DNA from: Obrimoposthia wandeli
Taxonomy: Eukaryota
DNA length: 64,000 bases
Assembly (NCBI GenBank): GCA_977020255.1
Contig: CDROCS010006203.1
Coordinates: forward strand, 124,001-188,000
Direction: 5' to 3'
Shown: positions 2,859 through 32,800 of the stretch, piece after piece
How positions within the stretch are numbered: position 1 is the first letter of the stretch
Layout of the letters: each line of letters starts with the position of its first letter
Made by a program: the position numbers and the translations under genes
Notes under the pieces: model-generated
Databases searched by the model: none
Seen by the model: only the letters and a program-made list of their open reading frames with translations
Told to the model about the DNA's origin: nothing

Positions 2859-5800
2859 CTGTATGGACCTCACACAATTGAGAGGCATGGTCAATGTCAG
2901 AACAAACTCAATCTCAAATAAAATATGTTACAGACAATTTTTTAGAATTCCTTTTATAATTATTAAAATGGTTAATGTTTCTTCTTCTTATTATTATTAT
3001 TACATACTACATTTAAGCATATTTGACAAAAGCATGGTCTTAATTTTTTCAACTAACTTCTTGAAGCCTTTTTTTCACATTTTTAATTATTTTTTTTCAC
3101 AAAATTGTTCTTGGAATATCGACATTTTATTTTAATTTTTGTATCAATTTGTCCATTTCTGAACCTCAACCGTTATAATTATAAAACAATCTAGATATTT
3201 GGCAAAGCTTGCTTTTACAAATGTGAATTCAAAAACATATATATAATTTTTTGAATATTTCCATTCTTTAGATGTATTTTGCAAAAAGAAATTTTCTAGA
3301 AGTACTTGTCAACAATCCTTGATCTACTCATTGGTATTTATTCAGTTAATTCCAAGCAACTGTAAAACAAATTCAATAGTATTTTTACACAAAATATTAA
3401 AAAATTATATGTTCTTTTTCATAACATTTTAATGATATTTAATAGTCTATTGATGTCTTTACACAATTAAAATTAATAACTTCAAATTCATTTCTCAAAC
3501 TATCTAATAACGAGATTGGAAATGTAAGGGTACAAGCTTAGAATAAATAATATGCCCGGTTCAGATTTCAACTAAATGACAAAGTCGCTTTCCCTTTATT
3601 GTTTTATCCAATTCGATCTTCATTGTGGAGATAAAACGAAAATTGTGTTAGATTGGCTGAATACTGTTAATAAATACACTGAGTCTCAAACGTTCGTCTA
3701 ATGGAGAAGGAAATAATATTTCTGAAAATTACATTAATGAGCTTTATCTTATCTTATCTTCCCGGAAAGATTCTTTAAAGTTGTCACAAAATAATGAGTC
3801 TTCGTTAAAAATTTCCCCCTCATTACTTTTTTTAAAATTTAAATATATTGAAATTAGATTACTGGAATAAATACGGACTAATACAGTTAAACAAAGTTCT
3901 CATGAGAAATTTATTGAATACTCACCCAAATTAACTTTATTTGAATATATTTAATCTGAAAGTAATTTCAGTGTCATTTTGTAAAGTTTAATCGTAAAAT
4001 ATAAATGGGGAAATTTTTGGGACGCATTAAATTTAAGGATTAACGGCTAAATGATATGATTATGGTAGCTATTAGACATTGAGGTTTTATGAGAAAGTCT
4101 GAAACTGCTATAGTTTGTCTGGGATAAGCGGTCTAGGGTATTTGATTTATGCGAAGAAAAAACATGTAATTTATCAATGTTTCCATAAACGGTTTATTTT
4201 TATAAGTTTGAATGTTGTTTGGTTAAATTTCATAAAATAATTTTGTCTATTAATTCAAATCATGAATTTTTGTTAAACAAGCCAAACTTAATTTTGTCGA
4301 TTTGAGAACATAATTTGAGTAATATTCCTGAAAAAAAGTAATTTATGCTGAAGAAGTGGTACGCTGACAGGAAGGGCGAGAGAGAAACTCAGACCTCGAG
4401 ACTGTCATCCTCCTCGTCGCCATCCAGCACCCCCGTCAAGAAGTTTTTTTCGTCCATCAGGTAGCACGCGAATCCCTCAAAACTGAGTAGCCCCCTCGAG
4501 CGCAGCTCTAGGTCCAGCTCGTGCCTCTGCCAAAGCCAACAAGGCAACATTATTGTCAAGGTCAGCAATATGACTGCCACTCGTTTAGTTCGATCAACGT
4601 GACAGTTTGAGGATGATGAATTATGGAACTGATAAAAAGATAAATTAATTTCTGAGTTCTCCCTCTGAGTTCTTATTGTGACCCAGCAATGACAATTTCT
4701 ATATGGGTATGCTTGATTTTGTTTAGCTAGTCACAGATAGGCGTAATTAATTTAAAATCAGATAATCTTAATGTTTTATGAAAAGAAATTAAAATAATTA
4801 GCTTTCAGATTTACTTTTTGTATTTTAGTATAAATCGATTTTAATTTTAAAAAATCGACGGAGATGCAGTGGAAAAAGTTTGACTAATGTTAATTTTAAA
4901 CTAATTTTCAATTGTTCTATTTTATTAAATATACTTACTGATTTCTTCCTTTTCATCAATATGACCGTAAAACAGGGTAATCTGATGACACAATATCCCA
5001 TAAATATGGTAGACAAGGTAGTAATTCGCTGTCTAACATTATCATGCAGAATTTAAACTTTTTAGATTCCTGGACATTTCAAGTTAAAATCATCTTCGAC
5101 TTTTTGCAATTGGTTACAATAAATGTGTGAATTAACAGTTTTATTGTTCAAGTATTTTTTATATACACTTAACATCCCCTTCATCTGGTGTATTGGTTGA
5201 TTTTGTTGAAGCTGTGCTGACTGTGCAATGTTGTTTCCATCTATTGATAGCATACAAACGCCCCATTTAATCTTCAGTGAGTATTGTGTCTAACTAATCA
5301 CTTACTGTATGTGACGTAACTAAAACTTCAACAAGTGCAGAACAGAAAAATAAAATAGATAAAAATCCACACGTTTACACCAATCCAATATATTTTTAAA
5401 AATAATGAAATTGTTTGAGAAAGTTAAAAAAGGAAGAATATTTCAGTATAATTCAGTTTAGAAATCCCTTCAATTTGATTTATTTGGTAATTCAGGTATT
5501 TCGGTACAGATGTTTCTCGGTTTTTTTTTGTAATACCCTATTAAAACTTATTAAAACCCCTGTATAGGGATGCATGGTCAAATTATTTTATGGTAAATAT
5601 TCTTGTAACTAGAGAAATTACTCGAATTCCGTATCATAGTGACTATTTTAACTAAATTTTGCTTGTTTGCATACTTTCGATAATATCAATAAAAAAATGT
5701 ATAAGTTATAAATAATATTAATTTAATACAAAATTATGTCTAACAAAATCTCTAGTCAGAGTGTATGATTCAATTAAATTTGAAACATTGTAGTTTTGTG

Positions 5801-11800: not shown

Positions 11801-14800
11801 TCACTTACTTTTTTATAAATTTTGACTTTATACTTGAGAGTTTGGACTCTCAAGTCCGGAACAGCATTAAGTCTACAGAGAAACTCTGATATAATGAATT
11901 TCAATATAACGAAACCCTACTACAACGAAACGATTTGCTCAATCCATTTAAATGCGTTATCATGAGGTTTTACTGTATTTCGGCATTTAGTTTATTATAA
12001 CCGTTGACTGTGAAAATCCAGTTTCACACAATTAAGTAGTGGGAAATGGCAGTGCTGTTCGTACTGTTTGCTTAACAATATCAGGAAATTCGTGGATCAA
12101 ATTGCGCCAAAAACTTATTCATCATCGAGCCTTTGCTTCAATGAAGTGTGAATGACTGCGTAATCTGATGCATAAAGTTTGAATGGTTTTTCTGTCAATT
12201 AAAATGACTTATTGATCCAACTGTTGTTAATATTTTGGGAAGTACGTGACAAAGTTTTCTTGCTATTTCTTCACGAACTGTTTTATGCAGTTCACTAAAA
12301 ATTTCTGCAAAATATTCATGTACGATTGAAAAACCTTCCATATTGTTCTCGATACATAAATGCCAAAACGGCAATTTGCAAGATGTTCCTGACTTTATCA
12401 TGTGCATTGAACACTGTAATGTTCTTCCCCTACAGTGATAAGTTCAATTCGTTCAGTTTGGCAAAGATGTCAGATAGATATGCAAGTCTCAGTAGCAAAG
12501 TTAGATATATTAAATATCCAGATAGTGAAAACATTTGTGGGCTAAAGAAAATAGAGAGATCCTACCCAATTCAAATACTCGGTAAAGATTCTGGTCACAT
12601 GACCTCCTTCTCACCTCAGTGTGCAATATTAAAACACAAGATTTTGAAAATTCCCGATTGTAAAGGTTGAATTTTAACAAAGTTCATAATTTTCACTGCA
12701 ATATCCAAAACTAACACGAACATATCAATGTACAAGTACCTGCCTGTGAAGAATACAGTGACTACTAGTACATATTGGTACAACATATTTTATTCGTGTC
12801 ACTGATCCAGATCATTTCCGAACAACGCATTAGCTCTGTCAGTGCAAATATGCTAAGAAATTATGTGCTTCTTTATGTAATTGTTAAAATATCTTCTCCA
12901 CAAGCTAATGATTTACATAGGAGAAAATCTTCTTCAACTGCTGTAGTAAAAAAACAACGTAGAAACAGTAGCAAAATTTATACGTCTTCTATATCTGTGG
13001 ATTCATCAATTGTAGAAAAGTGCATCCATGCCGCGTAGGTATGATATCAATTCTTTCTCAATATATTCAAAATTTCTTGAATACATCGTTACATAGTATT
13101 GGAATTGCATACATTTTTGCCACTCTCTTCATTCTGCATACATAACATAATCTACTTAGCCAACGGCTTTAGTAAAGTTTCAGCTGTTGAGTGTGCTTCC
13201 CCAACCTGAGCTATGCAATAACTCACCTGAAATGATGTTTCTGATGCATTCTAAGGGTCTCCTTTAACCATCTTTGACATTAAATGCTGGTTACTTTTGA
13301 GCGTATCCAACTTTCTTCTAAAGAATGTTACTGTGGTTTGTATTCGGTTAGTCGTAGGTTTTATAGGGTAATTTCAATTTGGAAACTAAACTATTAAACT
13401 AGAATCAAGAGTGTTTATAGTTTGGTGAATCGCGACTAGTATGTCGAATGAATGAATTGATTTTGAAGGTTTGTGGGACCGCTGCTGGTGAGTTGAGAGA
13501 ATTGATTGTTTTTACAGGCCACGAAAATATATTTTAAAACTGATTGGGAACGTAAATTTTAATTTAATTAGCATTTATTAAATTTTATTTAATGTTTAAT
13601 ATTTAAATTAATATTTAACACATAATGCCATATCAGCAATCATAATCAAGATCCCAACAGAAGTGTAAAGTGTCGGTTCTAAAACAATAGCACACAAAGC
13701 CCCCCCCCCCGAACAAGGCACAAGGAACAAAGCACATCTGAAATTTGTTTAGTCATACAGATGTGCTTTGTTCCTTGTGCCTTGTTCGGGGGGGGGGGCT
13801 TTGTGTGCTATTGTTTTAGAACCGACACTTTACGTCTCGAAATTTGTTTGGTCTTATGCGTCACTTACGATTATGTAGGTTAATATTTTGTAACATTAAG
13901 TATATAGTTCAAAAATTTAAAAATTCTAAATTTAAAATTTAAAATTAAAAAATTTAAAATTTAAAAATTTAAAATTTAAAATATGAAAATTAAAAAATTA
14001 AAATTTTAATTCGAAAATTAAATATGAAAATTTTGAAATTAAACACAATTGACCGTCCCAAATTTTTATTTGCAACTATTTAATTTACTTAGTACTGCGA
14101 CCTCATTCCAGGAGTTAGACTGCCCCGCATAACCGGACAGTTATCGCATATTTATCATAAGAAACGTTATTGTTTATAGTAGGAGTCTATATTTATATAA
14201 TGAATAAAGCAAAGTAACATCGATAAATATATATTAGTACAATTATAAGCGAACTTGTCCATCAGTAATTTTCCAGATTGGTTTATGAAGACCTGTACAG
14301 TTGATTTTGTATCCCTGTATTGAAATGACGATCATCCACTTGAGTCCAGTTCCCATATTGTCAACATTAAAGTCGTGATCTCGCTTGAAAAGATTAGGAT
14401 CAGCTCGAATTATTATATGATTCCCAACTATAATGTTGAGATGCATCGACTCAAAAGTTTTGTTAAGATCATCAATATCTGACGGATTTAATCTATGTAT
14501 CTTGAAATCGTATTTTGACTTATTCAGAGCCACCGGAAACATGAATCCATATATGATTGGAGTCTTCAAAAAATTCATTTGCCAGTTATAAAACATAACC
14601 GGCTTGGTGTACTTCAAATCGTTAGACTCAAATATTACATCTGATGGTTTATTGTTGAACGGTTTCTTATGTTTGGGTGTAGAGACTATATCATCAATAA
14701 AGAGATCCTCATTTGTTGCTTGCTTCTCAATCTTGATAGTCTTGGTTTGTTTATGGTTGTTGCTTGTCATAGTTTGCTTCTTTGGTTTTGATATAAAAAC

Positions 14801-17800
14801 TACATCATCATCATCGGTATCCACATCTGTGTCTGTAAGCCTTGTTGGTGGTGGCTTCTCGAACTTAAGAGATTTAGTTTGTTTAGAGTTCATATCAAAA
14901 TAATGAATTCTATACCAAAAGTGGTAGCTTATATATATATATATCATACTCGATTCTGATTGGATAATCTTTAGCTTAAAAATTTTATATATAGATTGGG
15001 TTATTTCCAATAATTCAATCATGAATCTTGCAAATATTAATTATAAAGGTAAAGTTAAAGGATACATCAGTCACTTACCCTTCAAAACCGGGAAACCATG
15101 TCAGTACGTGCACAGGTGTAAGGATTATACCCTTATAATCTTCCGTTCAGGTATGTTTTTTATGTTAGTTAGTTAGTTATTATTAGGAGCATGCAGGATA
15201 ATGGGTTGCAAGAAACCTATTACTACAACTTTGCTCAAGTGTCCATTTAGAATAAAGATTGATCGTATTCAATCCGTAACGGTTACTGTCGATTTAGGTA
15301 AGAAGGTGAACCTATACAAGTTGTCTCAAAAGTGTGGAGCTGCATGCATGTTCGAACCTGAGTTGTTTCCTGCTTTAAGGTTTACAAAACACAATCCTCT
15401 GTGCGTCAACATATTTGCAAGCGGGAAAGTGGTCATACTCGGTCTCAAGGATTTGGATTATCACTTTGATGTGACTTTGATAATAACTGATATTTTACTT
15501 TTGATATAAACAATAAATTTTAGTTGAATTTTATTCTTACATGATTTGAAATGCTAGTTGATTATATACTTCATTATACAACTGTTGATGATGTTTTAGT
15601 TAGACGAAAAGTAGGTTATTCTAGAATGAAAGTTTTACACTGGAAATATAGACGTGAAAGTGAAAGATTAAGATCATTAATTATAAATTTTAAAGGGAAA
15701 CAATCTATAAATGATTTAGCTAAAGCCGGATTTTATAAACATGATGATGATTCAACCGATAAAGTAAAATGTATATACTGTCAAGGTGCGTTATCCGAAT
15801 GGGAATGGTATCTTAAACCAATGAAGCAACATATGAAATTTTTTCCTACATGTCCATTTCTTTTAAAGTTAAATGTTTCAAATGTACCAATAATTGAAAC
15901 TATGAACAAGAAAATCGATTTTGATACATCACCATTGATTGGAAAAGTACATGTATCAGATATTGATATAAAATTACCTGATATATGCTATTCAAAATGT
16001 TTAGGACCCTATAATGAGGCTAATGTTATTGAGAAAATCGAAACAGATTGTATAATTGAATATCCATTGACTATCGAGAAATTCGATATGTTGATGGATA
16101 CAAACCAAATCAGATATTTGAAAAAGTTTTTCACAAAAGATAGAATAAAATCTGTTTTAAAATATAAAATGATGCGATATGGTGAATACAATTCACTATT
16201 TGAATTGCTTTGTGATTTATCTAATTTAGAAATGAAACCTGAAAAACAATATATAAATATACTTTCATACATTTTAAAGGTACCCGAATGTGTAGTATGT
16301 TTAAATAATCATATTGAAGTAGTATTTCTCCCTTGTGGACATGTAAATACATGTATATCATGTTCTAGAATGTTACATTCATGTCCAGTATGCAGATGTC
16401 TGATTGAACGGAGAGTAAGAAATGTAAAATTTCATGGTATAAACAATTGAAATTTATGATTTATATAAATGGATGAAAACGATAAATTAGTTGATGATGC
16501 AGTCGAAGAAATTATAAATGGAACAATAAATGGAGTTCAATACTTTTCTAGTTTTGATGGACTTTCTCGTAATAATATAAAGGAAATTGTTTGCACCCAT
16601 GTATATAGAGATATCAAACGAATTAAGGATTTTGAAACATTCGTTCAAATTAATCGTTCAAACATGATGTATATAACCTTTTCTGCGTCAATTTTTAATT
16701 CTCTGTTGTTGTATATATTAATAAAACGTATATAAACAATCGTTTCTTTTGATTTATTATTATTGATGATGATAAAACTTAAAAATAACGCGGTTTACCA
16801 AATAGTAGGACCTAGTGGGAGTGGGAAAACACATTTTGTAACTAAATTACTTCAAAATAAAAACATGTTTAATCAAAAGTTTAGTAGAATATACTGGCAT
16901 TACGGAGGTGTAGGTGAATCTGGTCTAACACGAACAGAATTAGGTAAATTGAAGGGTATTCATTTTATTAATGGTTTTGATAATAAATGGTCTGAGAGGT
17001 TAAATTCAGGAGATGTCATTGTAATTGATGACTTGTATGATGAAGCGAATAAAGAGTCGGGTTTTAATAACCTGTTTACCAAAATAGCTAGACATAGAAA
17101 TGTAACAGTGATTTTTATCACTCAAAATCTCTTTCATCAAGGCGGTCAACACCGTACTCGAAATTTAAATGTACATTATCTAGTATTATTTAAAAATCCG
17201 CGAGATCAAACGGTTATCGACTTTGTTGCCCGTCAAGCTTTCCCTTGTAATAAGCAATATTTGATTGACGCATTTCAAGATGCAACAACTAACCCTCATG
17301 GATACTTGTTTTTAGATTTTACACAGGAATGTCCAGACGATTTACGCGTGAGAACCGATATTTTCAATAATGATTTTGTATATAAACAAAAGAAAAGCCT
17401 ATCTACTTGTTAATCATGTCATTTATGAAAGAAACAATGCCTAGTGGAGTTGGACCTAAATGGAGACCGGGTGATAAATTACACGCTAATGATAACAAAT
17501 TTATGTTAAAGAAGAATGCTCATATTAAAAATCTTATTAAATCAGTGCTTCATCAGCGTAAAGTAGTCGATGAATCATTAAAGAAATCGGTAAAGACAGT
17601 AAAGAGAAAACCTGTAAAAAAGAAACCATTAAAGAAGAAACCTGTTAAGAAAGCAGTTGGAAAGTCGGTTAAGAAGTCGGATAAAAAGCATGTAAATAAA
17701 CTAGTTGGTAAATGGATTAAACTATAAACAATATTGCAAATAGTTTAATTCATTAAACATGTTATCAAAATCTATACTTCCCTACTTTCAGGCTTTAATC

Positions 17801-20800
17801 AAGGCTCCAAGCATATATAGACAACGTATACTCAAGTCATTTCCACCCTTTGTTATTGATAAGTTGGTTGTGGTCTTGTTTAATATTACAAAAGGTACTG
17901 TAAAAATCGGTAATCATAAACATAACCTTAGAAAACATCAAAAAGCTTTACTTGATTTAGTGAATACTAAAAGTAAAACTGGTAAACGTAGAGTAATTCT
18001 AAAACAAAAAGGTGGTTTTATCGGTGCATTAATACCTATAATTGCTACTTTAGTATCTCCTTTGATTGCAAAATTGATAAACTCATAAACAAAATGGGTA
18101 ATAACATACCAAACATCGATTTTAAATTCACTTGTTGTAATGGAAACGATATGGTACGATCCCGAAAACCCAGCTGGGTACAGCGGCATTGGCAAACTAT
18201 CATTAAAAAGTCAATCGACTCAAAAGAAAACTCAGAAATGGCTGAGCAATCAGCTAGCATACAGTCTAAACAAGCCAATGAAGCGGAAGTTCCCGACTCG
18301 AGCATACAGAACAAGCGGTCCTAACGATTTATGGCAGGCCGATTTGATGGAAATGATACCATATGCAAGTATCAATGATGGTAACAAGTATATTTTAACA
18401 TGTATTGACGTGTTTACAAGGTATGCGCGTGCATTACCTGTAAAATCTAAATCAGGTAAGGATATAGAGGCTGCTCTAAGTATAATGACTGATAAAACTG
18501 TCCCCATACATGTGCAAACTGATAAGGGTAAAGAGTTTTACAACAAAAATGTAGGTAGTTTATTTAAAAATTAAATATTGAACATTACTCTGTAGTTTCA
18601 CAATTCAAAGCTGCCCTAGTTGAAAGGTTTAATAGAACATTGAGAGATCGATTAAAAGACATTTTATTGCACAAGGCAATAAAAGATGGGTTGACGTTTT
18701 ACCAAAAGTAATGACTTCATACAATCACAGTAAGCATAGAGGTTTAGACGGATTGAGACCTGTCGATATTAATGATAAAAATGCAATGGAAATTTGGTTG
18801 AGTCGTAATCAAGTCGATAAAGTTAATAAACCCAAACATAAGACTGGTGATTATGTTCGGATATCAAAGTTTAGTGGTAGCCCCTTTATTAAAAACTTTG
18901 ATCAGAATTGGAGTGATGAAGTGTTTAGGATAGAGAAAATAGACAAACGTGCAAATCCTGTAATGTACTCTATAGTTGATGATGACTGTAATGTAATAAC
19001 AGGGAAATTTTATGAACCTGAACTACAAGTAATTGATAAACCTACACTTTTCCGTATCCAAGAAGTTGTAAAATCTAAAGGCCGTGGTAAGAATAAACAA
19101 TATCTCGTAAAGTGGCATGGATATTCTGAATCAACATGGATCAAAGCAAGCCAGATAGAGACTTCTATATGATTTTACCGAGTAATAGTTGTCCGAAAAC
19201 TCAACCTAATAATATGGCTTCATTATTCACTGTAGATTGGGAGAATCCAATTACGTTAAATGGTAAATGGGAGGCGGCATTAACTGAATTTACGTACACA
19301 AACACTCCTGTTATTTTAAATAAGGGCAGTGAAATTAATTATTCTATTAAATTATCCAATCAACAGACTGATCAAATATCTTTATCAGTAATTCATACTC
19401 AAGTAGAAGTAGAAAAGAAAGAACCGCAATTGCATGGTGATAAATCAGAACCAAAAGTTATTAAAAAGACAATTAATAAAATATCAAAACTCACCGTCAC
19501 GTCTAAAGATAAGATTGCAAAGCTTTCTATTTCCTTAAGCACAGTTGGTGTAGGTATTGATAAAAAGGATAATGTTGTACTAATAAAATCCGTCAACAAC
19601 AAAAAATTCTATATCAAGATGGATGCTGACGCTAAAAATGAATTAGGATTCATTTTCAATACATTAACTTCAGAAGGTTTCGAGTCTGATGATAAAGGAG
19701 TTTTACTTGGATCAACGTCTATCAGACCTGATTGCAGTGCACATAATTTACAATATATGCATTATAAAACCGGTTCATACAACAAGAAAATTGTATTTAC
19801 AGAAGATTTAAATAATAATAATGTAAATGCATTAGTAGCATACATTAAATCTAAATGCGACGTCATATTTAAAAGATTTTATATTGATGATAATGATAAG
19901 CTAATAAAATTTGTATTAAAGAATGGAATTGAGCATATTGGATTTGATCAACGTTTAATGTATGTATTAGGGTTAGATAAATCACGATTTACGGGCAACG
20001 GGTCTGGACTACCTCGATTAAATTACGAGTTTGATCACATGTACTTGTATTCTAGTCTGTGTGAACCTGTAAACGTTGGAGGTCAAATGATACCCTTATT
20101 AAAATCTATATGGTTAGATAAAAATAAAGCACCAGGAGACACGGTTAATATCGCAATATACAGACCCATGTATATCCCTTTAGCATCAAATGTAATCTCA
20201 AACATTGAAATTAATATTAGAAACGATGCAGGTGTTCCAATAAGTTTTTCCAACAATGCAAAAGTATCCCTTACCATACATGTCCGTTGTATAGATCAGG
20301 TATAAACAATCTGTATTCAAAAATAGTTGTCCATTACAGTTATGAATATAATTGAGACATTTAGTGGACCTCAACAAGGTGGTGAATTACCATATTTTGT
20401 AGGTAAACAGTACGGTTCGGGATGGTTGAAAACATTGGGGCGGTTAGCATTCCCTATACTGAAAAGATTAGGTCGTGTTGGAGTTAAAACAGTTCAAGAT
20501 GTAATAATGAACAACAAATCTGTGTTACCAATGCTTAAACAACATGCACTAGGGGAAGTTGCCGGAGCCATACCGGAGGCTAAGGAAGCTTTTGGTACAG
20601 TTGTTAAAATTATTAAAAATCGACGTAAACGTAAAGCATGTGAAGCAGCACAAATGGTTGAACCCGAAACTAAAAAGCAAGAGGGTAGTGGTAGAAAGAA
20701 AGCATCTAGTATAAACAAACGAAGAAAACAAGGTACAATATTTGCTTAATAATGGCTTGTGGTAAATCTGAATTATGTATTTTTGATCGAGCTTTGCCCC

Positions 20801-23800
20801 AGGTAGTTGTAAGTAATGGTAGCTTTGAAGATATATATCCAACAAACAATATTACCGGAACAAGAACATCAGAGATTCTGTTTAAAATTCAAGGTTCAGA
20901 TATTGAGTACTTAGATTTGAATGATACCTTGTTGTTTGTGAAAATTAAAGTAACGAAAACTGATGGTACAGAAATAGCTGTTGCAGATAATGTGGTCCCA
21001 TCAAATTTCTTGATGCATTCCCTATTTAAAAGCATAGATATAACAATGAATAATACTGTAGTAGAAACCCATCCTCAATATGCACAAAAAGCTATGATTG
21101 AAACCATACTAAACTATAGCACAGACACTAAAGACACTTGTTTGTCGAGTATAGGTTATGATGATGATGATGATGATGATGATAAGCGTAAAGGTTGGGC
21201 TGCTCGCTCAAAAGAAATTGACTTGTGTGGGACTCTTCGATCTGATATTTTTGAGCAACCAAAGTATCTCTTACCTGGTGTGTCTATCATGGTAAGACTT
21301 GTACCTAATAAATCTATGTTTAGTCTGAACTACGGAACGACTCTATCGCGAATCATATTTATTGAAGCTAAACTTAAAGTCAGAAGAATCAGAGTTGAGA
21401 ATGATGTTTTAATGGGACATAATATTGGTCTTGAATCTAGGAATGCTGTATATCCCTATACTCGCAGAAAGCTAATGTATCATACCTTAGCCATCGGTTC
21501 TACGAGTTTTTACAAGGATCAAGTGTTTGATGATGAACAATTGCCTAAATTTGTGTTGATTACGTTGCAAGCAGGTGAAAAACTTATCGGTAATGCTGCT
21601 ACAGACTCTTCAACATTCGATCATTCTAATGTTAACACTATCAGTCTTGCTAGAAACAGTGATTTTAACGAATCTTACAGTACAAACTTTGAAACAGGTG
21701 AAACCACCTTTGCATATGTCCAATCTATCATTAGAAATATGGGTAATTTGGATAAGAATATAAACAATGGCGTATCACTGGATGAATTCGAAACCAAATA
21801 TCCATTTTTCACGTTTGTTTTAGCCCCTGACTTTGATATCACGCAAAACCAATTAGCAAAACAGGGTAATTTACGCCTTGACATCAAGTTTCACAAGTCA
21901 TTAACAGTCCCAACAAACGTACTGATTTACGGGATTTTTGATTCTGAGTTTGAAATAACTAAAGGCCGACGTGTGATTGTATGAAGTGAGTTTTTAATTT
22001 ATGTTTTAAGATTTTATTAACAACAGTACTGTTCAGGTGAATGAAATAACTAGTTTGCTGCTCGGACCGCGATTTAAGGGTGTATACCCGTTGGAAAAAA
22101 TCCCAACATTAACGCCTGGGGGATATATTGTCAATACACATACCTCAAATCTTCCTGGAGAACACTGGATTGCGTTATTCGTGAGACGGAATTCTGTACA
22201 TGTGTATGACCCTCTTGGAGTATACTATCCAGGAAAACTTATCAAACATGTAGAGTCTCAAGGAAAACATGTATATTACAACAAAATTCGTTCTCAAAAC
22301 CCGCTGACTACTAATTGCGGTCCACTATGTATCTTATGGTTGTATGATCAAACTATATAAATGTCAAACCTTTTTATTTGTGTTGATTGGTAATAAAATT
22401 TGTATTCAAAATCGTATTTGTTTTATAAATAGCTGTCCCATCGAAATTTTAAAAAAAAAATTTGAGTTTTGATAAATTAAAAAATAGATTTAAAATCTAC
22501 TAATTAAGAGAAAATTAATGGTGTTAATTATTTTTAAAAATTTAAAGTTTAACGGTGTGAATTTCAGTTATGAAAAAATTCATAATTGATTGACCGTAAT
22601 TAACCTTTATGATCACGTGTGTAGCAACTAGGGAATAAAGAGTCTTTATTACGCATTCCTAGTTTGTAAGTACACACGTGATGTGTGACGTGTACATCTA
22701 GGGCAGCAACTACACTGATTGTGAACCATATATAAACAATCAGTGTAGTGTCATTTATCAATTTCATTCACAATTTCGAAAAGTAAGTATTTTGATTTTA
22801 TTTTTTATTATTTTTTTTTTTTTTAGATGTCAAAAATTATTTTTGCTTACAACAGCAATAAAAAATGGACAGTGAAGCCTGCAGTCGATGATGATGATGA
22901 TGATGATGATGTCGACTTGGATGCGACACCTGTCAAGAAAAGTAATTTTGATTATTATTATTATTATTATTATTATTTTTAATTTAATTTAGCAATACAG
23001 AGTGTCACACCACCGCCAATATCAATCGCACCATGGCTTTCAACGCACCATGCTCCTACTAAGAAAAGAAGCCGAAAGCAGAAGAAAAAGAAGAATATGC
23101 CAACAACAATATATGATGATGATGATGATGAAAAGAAGAAAATGTCAAAAGTTTTTTTATCTCTTGAGAAATCTTCTCACTCTCAACTTCCTTCTTCTTC
23201 TTCATCTTCTCATTCTCATTCTCATTCTCATTCTCATTCTCATTCTCATTCTCATTCTCCATATGATAATCATTTATATAAACTTTTTGGGGATATAAGG
23301 GATATAAAATCTTATTCTCCCGACTGCGATAGCTGCCCGGTAACGCGGGGCAGTCTAACTCCTGGAATGGGGTCGCAGAATAAGTTAATTAAATCAAGAG
23401 GTTACCCCTTACTTTTTAAACCAGGAACACCTGTTGGGTCACCTGTTAATTCAGTAGAAAATTTCAACGTAAATGAGATATACTCGGGTTTTGAAAATAT
23501 CCCGTTTAAAAAATATTTTAATCAATTAAAGAAAGTAAAAAATCAAAATATTGATTTAAGTAAACTTAAAACAGAAGGTAGGAAAGGTAAAAGATTTCGT
23601 CAGAAGCTGCGTAGATTGAGAAAACTACCAGCAGATATAACAATATTTGCAAATTTATTAGGGTCTTGCAAACCCATTAATATTAGTCCAGGTCTGAAAA
23701 TTACAGATCTGGCAAATAAATTATATGAAGTCTTTGAGACTGATCAAATTTATTTTAACCGTAATGGCATGCCCTTTGAAAGGGAAGCTATTATCGGTGA

Positions 23801-26800
23801 TGTTTTACATGAGTGGGCTATTATCCATGTATACCCTAAACTTCGTGGAGGAAGTAACTTATGTACATTGTACAAGTATTGCACAAACGTTAATCATGGA
23901 ATAGAATGTCATAGTGTAATGCTTAAATATTATAAATTTAAAAGCGGTTTTATTTGTCCACATTGTGATGTGTTATATTGTATTGACTATCAAACATTTT
24001 ATAATGATCATAAGGATCATCTGACGTATTTTAAGTCTTAAAAGTCAGCATACAAACGTAAAGTAATGAGAGTACCAACAATAGACAACAATAAAATAGC
24101 AAAAACTAATAATTTTACTGAAGAGTTTGATGTGGTAGACTCGTGGGAACCGGATAGTGTTGTAGAAATTGATACTTATCCTGAAGTTGTAGAAATTATT
24201 GAGCCTTTAAGTCCTAATGAAATCTTAAATAATAATAATATTGATGAACTTATAGATCAGGACGAGTTTATAACAGAAAATGATTTTTTCGACTCACTCC
24301 TAACTATTACGGATGATGACTTTGATAATATTGTTACAATTAATTCAGATAATATATTAACTTTTAACAATCAAATAGGAGGTGCAATTCAATCAAACCT
24401 TGTTTTTGATGTTAGTGGATTAAACATGCTTAAACTATACATTAACGATACTATGCTAACTGAACTTACTAGCAGTATAGATGTGTTTGGTCCCTGTAAA
24501 ATACAGTTTGGTGTTGAAACCGAATTTGTCAATAACGAGGGTCAACATAAAACATGACATGTAAGCTGTAAAGCAAATATTTTTGAACAAGATTTTATCA
24601 CTACAAGAACAGTTGAGCTCAACAATAAAATTGAAATTTATAAGGATATGAGTTCGGGATGGTCAGTATTTAAAATTCTGTTGGTATCCTTTAAATTTAC
24701 CGCACTTTCAAACGTAGCAGGATCATCATTTATAAAAACCCCGGTTGCGCTTGCTAAAACACTATCTATAGTGAACGTAAATAATACTGATGATCAGTGT
24801 TTTAAATACGCTGTTCTCAGTATCCTACACCATAAAGATTTCAATCGAAACAGACAAAGAGTTGAAAACTATAATGATTATTTAAATGAACTTATATGTG
24901 AGCCTGGTCCTATGAGGATAGACGGCATCAAGGCGTTTGAAAAACTCAATAATATAGCGATAACAGTATTCTCCTATAAACCTACAAAGGTAGAGCCTCA
25001 TAGTAGTCATCTAGTGTTTAAAAACCCAGATGTTAATGTTATTTATAGAACGAGTCTTAAACAGTGCGAAAAAGTAGTAAACTTGTTGCTGTTAGAACAG
25101 AGCGGTAATTATCACTATACAGGGATTACAAACCTGAATAGACTGTTAAATACTCAAAAATATAATGTGCGTCTCTTTTGGTGTGAGAAATGTCTTTTTG
25201 GATTTCGAACCACGATTTCATATGACAAACACAGGGCACATTGTAATATTAATACAGATTTAACAACCTTGTTTACAATGCCTAAAGAGATCAAGTGTCA
25301 ATTTTCCGACTGGTCTAAATCTATTGCGCCACCATTTGTTGTATATGCCGACTTTGAGTCAATACTGAGCCACATAATACTTTCAAACACATTCATAAAC
25401 CAATATCTATAGGGATGATTTTGAAAAACAACACTAATAATTCAATACAATATTTCAGTTATTACGGTCTGCAGTGTGCTAAACACTTTGTAGATAAATT
25501 AACTGAGTTGATAAATGGTGAAGTGGCAGATTTTTGGGTAAATAGTATTAATGTTCCTATGGTTTTTACTAATAATGACATGTTAAACTTTAGAGATTGC
25601 ACTAATTGCTATCTTTGTAAAAAATTAAACGATCGTATGGTTAGAGATCATGATCATATCACGGGTAAATACTTGGGTGCGGCATGCAACAAATGCAATT
25701 TAAGTCGCAAGTTTGCAAAGAGACCGGTTTTACCTGTGGTGTTTCATAACCTTATGGGTTATGATATACATCATATTTTAAAATATGCCGACTTGAAAGG
25801 TAAATCCTTTTCAATTATCCCTAAATCAAGTGAAAAGTTCATGTCCCTCCGTATAGAGATGAAGAGGGGGACATTGAAATTCATTGATTCATACCTTTTA
25901 CAACGTCAAGTCTTGAATCCTTAGTTTCATACTTGCCAAGTTGCCCTTATACTACACAATACCTAAACCCTAATATTGCAACAAGTAAGGCGGTATTTCC
26001 ATATGAATATATTAGTGGTATTGATAGGCTTATGGAGACGCAGTTACCCGCTAAATCTGAGTTTCCTTCTCGAGTCACTGATCAACAATATAATGAAGCC
26101 CTAATGATGTGGACCGTATTAGGGTGTAATACTATTAAAGACTACATGCTTGAGTATATGAAACTTGACGTGTATCTGTTATGTGATGTTTTTGAGGCCT
26201 TTAGACAGAAAGTAAGGGATGATGATAATCTAGAGGCGCTCAATTTCTTTAGTATCCCTGGTCTCAGTTGGGCTAGCGCATTAAAAACATTAGAGTATGA
26301 TGTGGATTTATTGCATGATCCCGAAATGTATAACATGTTTGAGGCAGGGATACGGGGAGGGATGACTTTCATCAATAAACATTACGTTAAAACAACAGAT
26401 GAAACATTCCTCCTATATATTGACATAAATAACTTATATGGCTGGGCCTTGAGTCAACCGTTACCACATACAGATTTTACATGGGTATATGACGGTTTTG
26501 AAGCGATAATTGAGCTTATAACTGAGAGGGATATTCACGGTAATATGCAGGACTTGAGTCTTAAAGAACATGGATACTTGTTGGAAATTGATTTAGGCAT
26601 ACCCATCAGTATTCATGATAAACTTGATGACTTACCGATTGCGCCTAATAGAGAAATCCCTCCCGGCTCAAAAGCTTCAAAGCTGTTGATGACCCATGAG
26701 GATAAAAATAATTACATCATACACTCACAACTACTACAATTTTACTTGTTTCTGGGTGCAGAAATTAAACAAGTGCATAGAGCAATAAAGTTTCATCAAG

Positions 26801-29800
26801 CTCCTATATTTAAAACATATATTGATATCAATAGCCGGAAACGGGCAGAGGGTACTACTACATTTGATAAAGAGTTTTATAAACTCAAAAATAATTCAAT
26901 ATATGGTAAGACAGTGGAAAATCTTAAAAAGCGTAAAGATATCCGTCTTACCAAGAATGATCGTCAGTTTACTAAACTTGTTTCAAGCCCTTGGTTTAAG
27001 AAGCATACCCAAATAACCGACAATCTCAATCTTTTATTTATGCAAAAGAAAGAAATTTGTCTGGATCGCCCATCATATATTGGTCAAGCTGTGTTGGACT
27101 TATCTAAACTACGTATGTACCAACTACAGTATAGTGATCTTGACCGGTATCGTAAGCAATATCATTGTGATATCAACATAGTTGCAATGGATACAGACTC
27201 GTTTTTCTTAGAGTGTAAGCATATAGATAAAGATGTCCTCTTAAAACAAATGATTAAAGATCAGATGTTAGATACGAGTAATTACCCGATCACACATGAG
27301 TTATTTAACGATTCTCATCGAAATGTGATTGGAAAGTTTAAAGATGAAAGCAAGGGGACAGTGCTTTATGATGAATGGGTATTTCTGAAACCTAAATGCT
27401 ACTCATTGAAAACGAGTATGAGGGCTAAGGGTATCTCCCTTAAACAAACCGAAATCAGACATGAGCATTACATAAAGTGTTATGTTGATGAAATTATAAC
27501 TGCCGGTCAGACACGTATTTTATCTCGCAATCATCAATTATTTACAATGTATAATGATAAAATTGCGTTAAGGTGTTATGACGATAAAAGGGTTTGGCTT
27601 GAGAAAAACAAATCCGTCGCATATGGACACTATAGTCTAAGATAGGTGTATATAAAATCTGGGGTAACCTCTTGAAAGTATTAACTAATATCCTCTTATT
27701 TTTAATGTGATAGTATGTATCTTTTTAATGCAATAGTATGTATATATTTTTAATGCTATAGTATGTATATATTTTTATTGATGTTTATTTTTAATACATT
27801 GTATGTATCATAACCATGTCTTGACTTCCTACTAGCTACTCATTGGATAATTTCATTGGTTAATTTCATTGGATAATTTTAACAAATTCTCTATAAATAT
27901 AAACACATTTCAATCAACCAATTTCTCATTATTTCAAATGACTACTTCTAAAGAAAAATTGCAAGCTCTCTATGATAACCTGAGCCCTACCTTGATGGCC
28001 CAGTATACTGAAAAGTACTTTAGTTTATTTGTTGCACCAGAACTTTTTGTCTCAAGGATTGAAGAACTTTATATGTATCACCTGTTTAATGGAGACTTTA
28101 AACCTAAAGTTGCAACAATCATTAAAATAGAAGAAGAAGAAAGCATGGATTGTGACAATGAATATAATTATGTATAAACATAGACTTTTTTTTTTTACTA
28201 AACTCCTACTATAAACAATAACGTTTCTTAAGATAAAACTGCGATAGCTGTCCGGTTATGCGGGGCAGTCTAACTCCTGGAATGAGGTCGCAGTACTAAG
28301 TAAATTAAATAGTTGCAAATAAAAATTTGGGACGGTCAATTGTGTTTAATTTCAAAATTTTAATTTTTAATTTTCATATTTAATTTTCGAATTAAAATTT
28401 TAATTTTTTAATTTCCATATTTAATTTTTTAATTTTTAAATTTTTTTAATTTTAAATTTTAAATTTTAAATTTTTAAATTTTAAATTTTAAATTTTGAAT
28501 TTTTAAATTTTTGAACTATATACAAATGTTACAGAATATTAACCTACATAATCGTAAGTGACGCATAAAACCAAACAAATTTCGAGACGTAAAGTGTCGG
28601 TTCTAAAACAATAGCACACAAAGCCCCCCCCCCGAACAAGGCACAAGGAACAAAGCACATCTGTATGACTAAACAAATTTCAGATGTGCTTTGTTCCTTG
28701 TGCCTTGTTCGGGGGGGGGGGGCTTTGTGTGCTATTGTTTTAGAACCGACACTTTACACTTCTCCCAACAGTTCCATATTTTCCTAATCGAGATGCGCAG
28801 TTTTCAAATGTTTCGAGAGTTTCGCAGGTGCAAAACACCTATTTGACACAATTTCAAGTTTGAAAGTATTATTTGATTGAACAAAGTAAATGAAAATCTT
28901 TGAAATTTATGAAATTTATGAAGTTAGAAAATAACAATAATAACCTTTAGTCCACTTAAATATTTAAAATATTATTTGATGATCAAATAAATGATAATTG
29001 GAAATATTTAATTTCACAATAAAATTGTCGTGTTTATTTAAATACAACCCATATTAAGTATTTAAACAACAACTTATTTGAAATTATTTAGAATTTCTGA
29101 TGCTAAGAAATAATATTCTGAAATTTTTGTACGGAACCCCACACTCCTTTGCGGAACCCACTGGTAAGGGAATTACTGTTATAATATAATTATGTCTTAA
29201 ATTACTTTGATGCATTCATGGCAATGATTTTCATTTAGAAATGAGTTCAAGCCGGCAGCAGTGAAACAGTTAAGAATATGATTTTACTTTTCTATCTATA
29301 AGTAAAATACAATAACATAAAAAATCATATAAAAATTTCAAACTAAAATTAAATGTTGTAAATATCACAAAACGAAAGGGAAAATACACGAATAGTTCAA
29401 TAACCACCCCTTTAATATATGTATAGATTAAAACACTATATTGTGTGTTGTATATCAATGTTTAAGTTTGCAACGAAATTTATCTATGTCATTTTACATC
29501 ATTTATACATTTTCAGAATTTTATTATGTACAGGAATGTAGCCGAGGATAAAACATTTACTTCATATTTCATCAAAATTGGCTTATTAAAACCGAGATTA
29601 TTCCCAATGTATATATCCTGCGCAAAGAATTCATTCACACAATATGTAGCATTAAATCACAAATTTTGTTGTTATTACACAATGTTTTATTTATATTTAA
29701 CATTTTTAATAAAATATAAAACTTCAGTCTATCTAATTTAAAAGTTTTGAAGCCTTGCATATTTGTCATTAATATTCTCCTCTTTTCCATACAAACTTTG

Positions 29801-32800
29801 AAGATTCTTTTGAAGCAGTAATAAATCTCGTATCGATCCTCGCTGATTTCCACATTAGGTCTCCTAAATGAGCAGCTTAAATTCTCAGAATAATGTAGGT
29901 AAGGAATGTTGGTAAATTAGAATCTTATTTTACCCGGAGGAAACCAGCATACATCGCCAGACATACATTTAGAGTTAGAAGAACAATCGAATCATTTAAA
30001 AGCTGCTTACCTTCCCCTCACGATATCTGCATTTTGAGAGTACCTGGTAAAGCAAATGATTACAAGCACTGGGTTGTAAGGTCCTGAACTTATTCTCAAT
30101 CTTTAAATGTATGGCTTTAATTATAGTCACACGATTTAATACCATTGGCATGTAGAACTGCCGGTGTGAGATGAAGGGAAATAGCAATTCAAGAAGATAT
30201 AGTGGTGCTAAAACGTACCGGAATGAGTCTTGTGTGGTAGATCCCCGACATGTGAGTAGAAGGTCGAATGACGAAGGTAGGACGGTGTTGTGATCATGGA
30301 GAGTTGCCGATTGGTGCATACATCTATATTGGCCCCTCCGTGGTTAAGAGTGTTTTTGGAGCCCTCAGAACCTCCGGTCGAGGAGGAACCCATTTGATTA
30401 GTGATCGGGTGGGCTTTACCACAGCTGCTGGATGATGATTGGTCGGAGACTCGCTGCTTCTGGTGGTCAGGGCTGTCCTGCTGGTTACTGCTGCTTGCCG
30501 TCGGCTTGACCTGGACATTGGGGACACCTCGTCAAAAATAAATACCAGAGTTACAGTATTATATGTTTCAATCTAGATACCATTATTAATAATGGCAATA
30601 AAATGGACAAGATAATTAAATCCATATAAAATAAACAAAATATTTATTACCAAATTTTATATTTAAAGGTAACAATTTGTATTTTATTGAACAAAATAAT
30701 CCAAAGCGTGCAACAATTTTTGTCAATCTTAAAAATTTCAAAATTTTAGAATTATAAATTATATTTAAATATTGTTAATTTGTTTTATCATCGTTTTTAA
30801 AGTTTTTGTACAAACTGGATGTTGCACCCATTTCTAAAAAGATAATAGTGACTCATTAAATGCCCGTTACTTCTTTCACCCTGATGCATTCTGAAGGTGT
30901 TGATGCACATAAAGTAGTGCTAAAGCAGAAAAAATAATATACAAAATTTATCTTGTAGTAAAATAATAAACTAATAATATGCACTTATAAGATGAAAATA
31001 TTGAAAAAAGATAGTGAAAAGTAAAAATATTTAACTATTGATGAGCAACTGCTTAAATTGCAGGTTAGTGTATGTACAAAGCCTGGAAAATATGAATAAA
31101 TTTATTTTAGCTATGATGGTGGTGAATATGCGTCAATACTGCTGACATAAACAGCGTTTATACTCCATTTACAAAAGCTTCAACAAAGCAGAGTGAAGCC
31201 GTCGGCATGAAACTAATGAATCCTTTCGTACCGGTGATGTACGTTCTCAACTTATCCTGAAACTTTAAATGGATACGATTTGTGGCTTTCACATGAACTG
31301 GCGATGTGGTATGAATCAAACATTCAAATATGTATATCTACATATAACGTGTAGAAGGAAAGATTGCCATTGAATGATGTGGCTATATGGTTACAAGATT
31401 TTATTCTAACTTTGAAAACACGAAGCTACCTCAAATTGCTATATACAATATATGTTTCAAGAACATATAAACAGTGAATAATATTACTGGGAACAATATT
31501 AATACAATTGAGTTTAATATCCAATCGAGAGAAACATAACATTTTAAAACATAATGGAACTAACAATTAGAATGACTTGGTTGAAGAATATAAATTAGCA
31601 CATTCAAATTTATTTTACCATACACTATTTAAGGAAGTGAAAATTCAATTAAAAATATTTGTATTGAAAAAAGAAATGGTAATTATGCTCACAAGGCATT
31701 GATGAATGAATACTTAATTATAGCAAAGATAAAAAACGTGTTTCATTAGATGCAATTGGTTATGATGCCGATGGTGATGTACGCATAGGGTGGATTGCAA
31801 AATCCCAAGAATTTGAGTTAAATTCGATTGGATTTTCTGAAACAATCTAAATATCTGCTTCTCGGTATGAATGTCGGTATAAAATTGGTTGTTGCAAATT
31901 GAAACTTCTCTTTAAAAACAAGTACAGTTAATTGTAGAATAAAAGTTATACATGCTGAAATTAAAGTTAGGCGGGTGAGAATTGAACCATCCGTATTGAT
32001 GACTCATAATGTTGATTTAGAAACTCAAAATGCGGTTTATACTTATAGACGGGGGAAATGGTACATTATTCTCTACCTAAAGGCACTACAACATTTTATA
32101 AATCACCTATTTTTGATGATGAGCAATTACCTAAATTTGTTTTGATTACATTTCAGCATAATCCTAAAATGGATGGGTCTAGTGCAACAAACTCTTCTGA
32201 ATTCGATCATTGTAATATCAGCTTAATTTCCCTTAATAAAAACACTGATTTTGTTGAAAGATACAATACAAACTTTGAAAAAGATGAGTACTTGTTTGCA
32301 TATATTCAAACAATGGATAGAAACATGGTATTATTGGATAAAAATATAAAAATAGGTATAAAATCTGAAGATTTTAAGGGACATTATCCGTTTTCCACAT
32401 TTGTATTGGTTCCTGAATTTGAAGTAAATCAACATCAATTACATAGACAAGGTTATAAAACATGTTATAAAATACTACTGAATTGTCATAGTTTGTGTTG
32501 TTTGTTATTGGTCATTAAAATATAGTCAATAAAAATTATCTAAATCTTAAATGCTTTTTATAAAATGTTTATATAAAAATTCAAGCTTCTGTAATTACAA
32601 TGGACCATTTTTGTGACCAAAGATTAGCAATTTTTTATTACACAGTGGAATAAAATATAACTTGTATTTTTTCCTTTTAATGAAATAACATAATTCTAGT
32701 GCTAGCTTATTAGGAAAATGTCATTAAAAAATCCATCTTGTCATGATTTTGATATATCGACATGATCAGAAAACACATGTTGATACACAAAACAACGATT

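Follow-up and report, generated by a model that had tools for sequence, protein, structure and literature searches.

A conserved TATA-like motif before capsid and packaging genes of TBP-encoding Polintons, and a candidate reader encoded by the element

We analysed a 64,000-nucleotide stretch of the Obrimoposthia wandeli genome (assembly GCA_977020255.1, contig CDROCS010006203.1, positions 124,001 to 188,000, forward strand; hereafter the window), in which a Polinton/Maverick element resembling Beta adintoviruses occupies positions 13659–28763 (about 15.1 kb). The element was delimited by its long terminal inverted repeats (TIRs), their ends, its genes and a 6-bp target duplication, CCCAAC. It encodes a protein resembling the TATA-binding protein (TBP), IAP, a packaging ATPase, a pX-like protein, an integrase, minor and major capsid proteins, a protease and pPolB. 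The subject of this report is an 8-mer, TATAAACA, that recurs ahead of these genes. The motif is real, lineage-wide and class-specific, and the small TBP (mini-TBP) encoded beside it is its candidate reader.

Results

Gene content of the element

Pfam profiles identify the TBP gene (15021–15509, plus strand; E = 2.8e-13), the integrase (rve, E = 6.5e-11, plus a chromo domain), the packaging ATPase (Pox_A32, E = 5e-7), pPolB (DNA_pol_B_2, E = 0.0035) and an adenain protease (Peptidase_C5, E = 0.005 in the window copy and 1e-7 in one relative). The capsid assignment draws on a weak Capsid_N match (E = 0.019) and on 103 capsid homologues. Both the integrase and the polymerase genes are fragmented in this copy. 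The host genome (1.35 Gb) contains many near-identical copies of the element, 149 of 150 scored matches being identical over the C-terminal open reading frame (ORF) of the TBP gene, and these are surrounded by several older, nested Polinton families.

Copies of the motif in the window

An earlier note on this DNA had listed at least 13 plus-strand copies of TATAAACA and proposed that they form a promoter for the TBP of the element. All 13 coordinates proved correct, and one further copy lies on the minus strand, in the left TIR (14171–14178), mirroring a copy in the right TIR. Over the whole window, 24 occurrences compare with 9.85 ± 3.02 in shuffled sequence, a count reached by 0 of 100 shuffles. 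Between the TIRs there are 12 copies where 1.2–2.7 are expected (Markov orders 0–4), a slightly wider expectation than the one to two copies given in the note, whose claim of enrichment stands; at Markov orders 2 and 3, TATAAACA is the top non-microsatellite 8-mer of this region. The flanks (48.9 kb) hold three plus-strand and seven minus-strand copies.

Eight of the 13 plus-strand copies lie 31–46 nt upstream of an ATG, as reported. These are found 46 nt before IAP (15505–15512, overlapping the TBP stop codon), 31 nt before an 88-codon ORF (16438–16445), 35 nt before the packaging ATPase (16731–16738), 35 nt before a 103-codon ORF and 32 nt inside the ATPase coding sequence (17381–17388), 36 nt before the pX-like gene (17723–17730), 41 nt before a gene that we call o135 (20301–20308), 42 nt before the major capsid gene and 39 nt inside o135 (20710–20717), and 40 nt before the last ORF (27898–27905), where a canonical TATAAATA and three ATTGG boxes lie ahead of the motif. 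Measured against 13 gene starts, all eight copies fall in a range of 28–50 nt (binomial p ~5e-11), which was chosen once the distances in the earlier note were known, so that the relatives provide the fair test of spacing.

A ninth copy (22731–22738), which overlaps a canonical TATATAAA, precedes a predicted non-coding exon, with inferred splicing from a donor at 22783 to an acceptor at 22826 and an ATG at 22827. Two others, inside the coding sequences of IAP (15734–15741) and of the major capsid protein (21759–21766, in N-I-N-N codons), are probably codon coincidences; the latter is missing from 3 of 5 capsid genes compared. The remaining two lie at the right end. One covers the stop codon of the last ORF, with no gene downstream, and is unexplained (28173–28180); the other belongs to the right TIR (28210–28217), where a G+C-rich hairpin element follows 28 nt further on. 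Four copies (16731, 17381, 22731 and 27898) share sequence with a canonical TATA box. One-mismatch copies are present, as claimed, ahead of the integrase (CATAAACA, 18084–18091, plus strand; 56 nt before the ATG, an atypical spacing, and 10 nt before a conserved small ORF) and of the minor capsid gene (AATAAACA, 19092–19099, plus strand; 44 nt before the ATG, within integrase chromodomain codons).

Conservation in TBP-encoding relatives

A metagenome scan yielded 52 loci, which merged at 90% identity into 35 clusters. Their representatives carry TATAAACA 89 times against 18.0 expected, and an ORF starts 28–50 nt downstream of 32 of these copies; in reverse orientation the count is 0 of 89. The fixed orientation to the gene that is typical of a TATA-type core promoter is thus present. 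Four further families in the O. wandeli genome carry the motif at orthologous places, and L160, a locus found through its capsid protein alone, proved to be TBP-positive, with seven plus-strand copies; the genes that they precede include those for the ATPase, the pX-like protein, o135 and capsid, and the TBP and polymerase genes have none. In all, about two dozen relatives share TATAAACA at a fixed distance before capsid and packaging genes. No relative was found in IMG/VR with TBP, capsid (single and aligned) or ATPase queries or with one DNA pattern, and a search of a phage collection gave no match.

The columns flanking TATAAACA show only A+T richness, and the 8-mer is therefore the conserved unit. 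It departs from TATAWAWR, the canonical TATA consensus, by its C at position 7. Among variants, a position ahead of a gene start was seen for TATAAACA at 50 of 135 sites, for CATAAACA at 8 of 20, for TATAAACG at 6 of 13 and for TATAAACT at 4 of 12; the figures are 10 of 57 for TATAAATA, early boxes included, and 0 of 46 for TATAAAAA. Positioned sites vary only at positions 1, 7 (T) and 8, and almost never at positions 2–6.

Two probable classes of promoter

Gene starts anchored by homology were scored over 40 sequences (the 35 clusters and five families from the host genome, window included), counting exact motifs within 120 nt of genes with a testable start; a neighbour gene, g1m, was left out because its starts are unreliable. 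The exact motif precedes 12 of 16 ATPase genes, 11 of 12 pX-like genes, 9 of 10 o135 genes (at 33–41 or 96–107 nt) and 10 of 11 major capsid genes; in the four remaining ATPase genes, a copy with one mismatch occupies the equivalent place. By contrast, it precedes 0 of 34 TBP genes, even when relaxed to YATAAAC(A/G/T), and 0 of 4 polymerase genes. The earlier note had placed the motif at almost every gene junction, which holds for structural and packaging genes and fails for these two. The restriction by gene class is observed; that the motif-bearing class is late is a prediction.

TBP genes instead carry what look like ordinary host-type promoters, with a canonical TATA box in 17 of 34, CCAAT in 14 of 34 and an initiator-like TCAYW in 29 of 34. 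Initiator-like sequences (11 of 73) and CCAAT (7 of 73) are rarer at motif sites. In the window, the host-type and predicted early promoter of the TBP gene lies at 14959–14995 (plus strand), with ATTGG at −62 and TATATATAGA at −35. The first T of the TATA box lies 30–32 nt from the initiator A in 14 of the 15 TBP promoters that hold both, and this internal ruler stands alongside a floor of 29–33 nt in the distance from motif to ATG, both being distances in sequence rather than transcript ends; the latter distance is never below 29 nt and is 33–37 nt at 43 of 73 sites. A TATA box is placed at −31/−30 in passages of PMC1779604. Together, the distances and the ruler are compatible with the geometry of a TATA box at −31/−30, which would leave very short leaders.

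The element-encoded mini-TBP

The window TBP is a protein of 150 residues with at least 171 homologues of ~145–160 residues, a bare core without an N-terminal domain, such as the herpesvirus TBP mimic has, for binding the RNA polymerase II (Pol II) C-terminal domain (CTD). Translated without splicing, it alone among the homologues listed has a 12-residue insertion, which coincides with a 36-nt GT-AG stretch (15151–15186), and we therefore predict an intron there. Four read sets, which are contigs of one sample, cover the predicted introns flatly and without a joint, and are uninformative on starts, ends and expression.

An AlphaFold2 model (pLDDT 91) has the two-repeat saddle fold, matching TBP with Z 13.9 and an rmsd of 2.5 over 147 residues (Z ≤5.9 for unrelated entries). 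Conservation was read from an alignment of 101 sequences, made up of the window protein plus 100 of 120 listed homologues. Three of the four intercalating phenylalanines (F41, F116 and F132) are retained in 100–101 of 101; the fourth, the first of the N-terminal repeat, is replaced by K or P, with the register uncertain by one residue. The stirrup EPELFP is kept (E112 in 96 of 101, D in 5; E114 in 101 of 101), and the glutamates of the C-terminal stirrup serve TFIIB in cellular TBP, according to passages of PMC10005294. Saddle fold, three phenylalanines and stirrup glutamates are thus common to cellular TBP and mini-TBP (PMC10005294, in part), whereas the latter is ~30 residues shorter. The model has only two helices of at least four residues, both in the C-terminal half, and the N-terminal repeat lacks its two. 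No TFIIB family was detected by Pfam among 31 ORFs beside TBP genes or the 18 window ORFs, a result compatible with a divergent TFIIB.

Near-invariant positions of the family are N7, R59, M61, S85, R120, C128 and N130. In a HMMER alignment to cellular TBP, R120, C128 and N130 align with what we take to be I194, V203 and L205 in yeast numbering. These are the three positions mutated in the altered-specificity protein TBPm3, whose selections disfavour C at positions 6–8 (PMC1636458, in part). TBPm3 is engineered and changed in its reading of base 2, whereas mini-TBP is natural and predicted to be changed at base 7. The DNA face of mini-TBP is conserved but different, as would be expected for a changed specificity. 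The earlier note had stressed a divergent N-terminal repeat; it does lack both helices and one phenylalanine, but the C-terminal repeat is changed as well, at the three positions of TATA specificity.

Elements without TBP

For comparison we assembled seven Polinton-like elements in which no TBP was found. Two belong to an Alpha-type family in the same host, in which a profile search, including one complete TIR-bounded copy, found no TBP; they are the longest uninterrupted of ten fetched loci, the others carrying nested insertions. The other five, recovered from IMG/VR with a polymerase alignment, are distant elements with related polymerases, and no TBP was found in the 12.8–15.4 kb read of their 14.9–19.8-kb contigs. 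The set holds 10 motifs against 16.8 expected. The earlier note had named equal frequency in Polintons lacking TBP as fatal to its proposal; a positioned motif was instead seen at 0 of 92 genes in the TBP-negative set and 49 of 238 in the TBP-positive set (Fisher p 4e-8, which overstates the association, since the positives form one lineage and the negatives are distant ones).

As a separate observation, genes of the Alpha-type family (G000 C5437, C1961; L108, L109, L118, L119, L126, L127) lie behind a T-rich tract and AAAAAATG, an arrangement that recalls poxvirus late promoters.

Hairpin element and other features

A G+C-rich, predicted multi-hairpin element lies at 28238–28294 (plus strand; z −2.4 and −3.4 against shuffles), with further copies at 23323–23379, inside the Ubl ORF, and at 14080–14148. 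A second family has hairpin elements of different sequence (L068 ~3370–3450, L069 1555–1632), and in both families a TIR copy of TATAAACA lies 28–31 nt ahead. If TATAAACA is a promoter, this placement makes the hairpin element a candidate small RNA. Rfam returned nothing for the TIR hairpin element and only sub-threshold, miRNA-like matches on the terminal hairpins. The latter are palindromes at both termini of the element (13665–13833 and 28589–28757) with 76-nt arms and a 17-nt loop, unusual where protein priming is expected.

The small ORF at the integrase start (window 18094 onwards), which overlaps it in a different frame, is unannotated and conserved (window, L011, L018, L021, L028, L030, L033, L053). 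It starts with MG and has CC at about residues 14–19, and its product looks like a lipid-anchored protein. Of 10 loci, 8 have the motif 32–35 nt before this ORF; the window copy is among the two exceptions.

The gene at 14243–14893 (minus strand) is kept beside TBP in many relatives, and atlas leads (scores <0.9) point towards single-strand DNA-binding proteins of DUF2738/Pox_I3 type. IAP and the following ORF (15551–16450) are 75–90% identical to the L068 family, where the capsid proteins are only ~54% identical, which suggests a recent exchange between families. Three to four tandem T-rich repeats with TAGTATGTAT, 3′ of the polymerase stop (27690–27810), are possible 3′-UTR or termination elements. 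Outside the element and 3 kb away, 31704–32453 holds a decayed remnant of the major capsid gene from a second Polinton family, and exons of a host gene, in pieces on both strands, surround the insertion (for example 2598–2888, 47884–48615 and 62713–62967); by its motifs we take this gene to resemble phospholipase C epsilon.

Discussion

TATAAACA is very probably a promoter, a role that survived every sequence test that we ran, and its reader is probably the TBP of the element. The fuller reading, which on balance we think likely, is that strand-specific TATAAACA is a TATA variant, with C at position 7, that forms a core promoter through which mini-TBP would switch on the predicted late genes. 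Host TFIID would first transcribe TBP and other early genes through ordinary CCAAT/TATA/initiator promoters. Mini-TBP would then bind YATAAAC(A/G/T), which host TBP would disfavour, and its EPELFP stirrup would recruit host TFIIB and thereby host Pol II, with no need of an initiator. With transcription starting ~30–32 nt beyond the first T, most leaders would be 1–10 nt long. Since the TAA of the motif often doubles as the upstream stop codon, the motif sits on gene junctions.

Several points weigh against this reading. The lack of one intercalating phenylalanine means that the viral TBP may bind DNA differently or not at all, and the TBP of L160 differs at R59 and M61, yet the same motif is used there. 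The title of PDB entry 1qn3 describes wild-type TBP crystallised on a C(−25) variant, so that host TBP appears able to bind a TATAAACA-type box; the available passages of PMC2396422 hold nothing on C at position 7. Leaders predicted at 1–6 nt are unusually short. Two TBP-positive loci, L015 (5.3 kb, 10 ORFs) and L016, have no positioned motif; both exceed 5 kb and hold no recognised structural gene. At 52 of 135 sites no ORF of at least 40 codons starts 26–60 nt downstream; 11 of these sites belong to a 75–107-nt class, and others fall in coding sequence, in broken copies or at contig ends. At least four (L030 10011, L043 3339, C1607 1076 and window 28173) lie at the 3′ end of a gene, and nothing follows them. 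Among the 73 positioned sites, 13 share sequence with a canonical TATA box. Finally, the association of motif and TBP amounts to about one evolutionary contrast. No close TBP-less relative was found; a search of the host genome with a distant capsid protein returned only families that encode TBP in every copy retaining the region in question. Five of the seven negatives are partial, and those five may yet encode a TBP.

The alternative that survives best, which we nevertheless consider unlikely, is a core promoter read by host TBP/TFIID or a TBP paralogue, that is, a weak TATA box that needs high template copy number, with the viral TBP serving, for example, as a decoy. The geometry would suit any TBP, and the crystallised C7 box, the overlaps with canonical TATA and the viral protein's missing phenylalanine and two helices all fit this view. 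Yet there are many ways to weaken a TATA box and a single variant is used lineage-wide, the same host's TBP-negative elements do without it, and the DNA face of the viral protein is near-invariant rather than decayed.

Reading by the transcription machinery of a helper virus, like the late motifs of virophages, is improbable. Shared motifs before genes are said to exist in virophages and Polinton-like viruses, but an element with predicted spliceosomal introns and with early promoters of host type would be expected to use nuclear Pol II, and the motif tracks the element's own TBP gene.

The earlier note had itself offered a 3′-end signal as an alternative, and such a signal (cleavage/polyadenylation, termination or operon-style processing between genes) is, if anything, a little less credible still. 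UAUAAA resembles the familiar AAUAAA, some copies end a gene with nothing downstream, and the stop codon lies inside the motif at 14 of 48 sites with an upstream gene, an overlap that arises because the motif contains TAA. However, the message would be cut before its stop at two window sites, which lie 32 and 39 nt within a coding sequence, and in several relatives, where the motif lies ~100 nt within the minor capsid gene. Distances to the previous stop spread from −194 to +198 with no bounded interval, whereas distances to the next ATG peak. Head-to-head cases have the motif with no upstream gene (L030 1953 and, by inspection, L053 2418), and most tail-to-tail junctions have none; we used single cases because ORF starts are often mis-set, which makes the overall orientation table weak.

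The note's other alternative, a host forkhead site (RYAAACA), is largely refuted: ATAAACA fits the pattern, position 1 is the most variable and the FoxM1 site is reportedly TAAACA, but GTAAACA (0 of 50), GCAAACA (0 of 47) and ACAAACA (1 of 56) are virtually never positioned against 61 of 206 for ATAAACA, TATAAACG and TATAAACT are used and strand is strict, so that the variant counts fit a TATA-like reader.

The motif and the mini-TBP bear on how animal Polintons and adintoviruses transcribe their genes. Our literature search, with most subscription journals outside it, found no mapped promoters for these elements and no paper on a TBP-linked promoter in Polintons; supplementary maps of Starrett et al. 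may show TBP in animal elements. The favoured reading offers a concrete two-stage programme, built from host-type early promoters, a distinct conserved late box and a candidate reader that the element itself encodes; a test would take one small protein and short DNA probes (TATAAACA, TATAAAAA, TATAAATA, CATAAACA and TGTAAACA). The motif is also usable as a gene finder in the TBP-encoding lineage. If the reading is true, it would supply a natural TBP of changed specificity, bearing on how TBP reads base 7, and would argue for a regulated, virus-like cycle of TBP-encoding Polintons. More tentatively, and with somewhat less than even confidence, we envisage a widespread lineage of animal Polintons with a one-protein orthogonal switch, in which a minimal altered-specificity TBP alone would redirect host Pol II to TATAAAC promoters, much as a phage sigma factor might in a nucleus, yielding near-leaderless late mRNAs and a small structured RNA from the terminal repeats.

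Among known systems, the small capsid-encoding virophages and Polinton-like viruses (mavirus, Gezel-14T) reportedly have one conserved motif before many genes, as here. In those, a giant helper virus is the presumed reader, whereas here a candidate reader lies on the element, beside a second, host-type class of promoter. With Beta adintoviruses and Polintons, as described in the available text of Starrett et al. 2021 (PMC8502044, bioRxiv 697771), the element has in common its TIRs, 6-bp target duplication, pPolB, rve integrase, ATPase, capsid genes, adenain, pX-like gene and IAP; that text mentions TBP in legends to figures on MELD viruses and nowhere else, and its main part does not use the word promoter.

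The closest functional parallel comes from beta- and gammaherpesviruses, where a viral TBP mimic (KSHV ORF24, EBV BcRF1) replaces TBP on TATT late promoters, according to passages of PMC7498053 and PMC12529657. Both systems, on the same sources, have a viral protein of TBP fold, structural genes that follow a TATA box changed in one base, and early genes (predicted as such in the element) behind canonical TATA; host Pol II is the polymerase in herpesviruses and the predicted one here. For ORF24, too, polar substitutions on the DNA face have been reported. In contrast, ORF24 is a large protein that belongs to a six-member complex and binds the Pol II CTD, with a predicted incompatibility with TFIIB, whereas mini-TBP, for which no partner was found, is a minimal TBP of 150 residues that keeps the TFIIB stirrup (PMC7498053, PMC12529657, in part). 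No Pfam family of the five further herpesvirus activators was found in the 18 window ORFs or 31 further ORFs, a search made without dedicated profiles. The variant base is position 4 in herpesviruses and position 7 in this 15-kb integrating element. By inference, the element's system would work like herpesvirus late transcription without being a member of it and, if so, would represent a second, independent origin of that strategy in a far simpler form.

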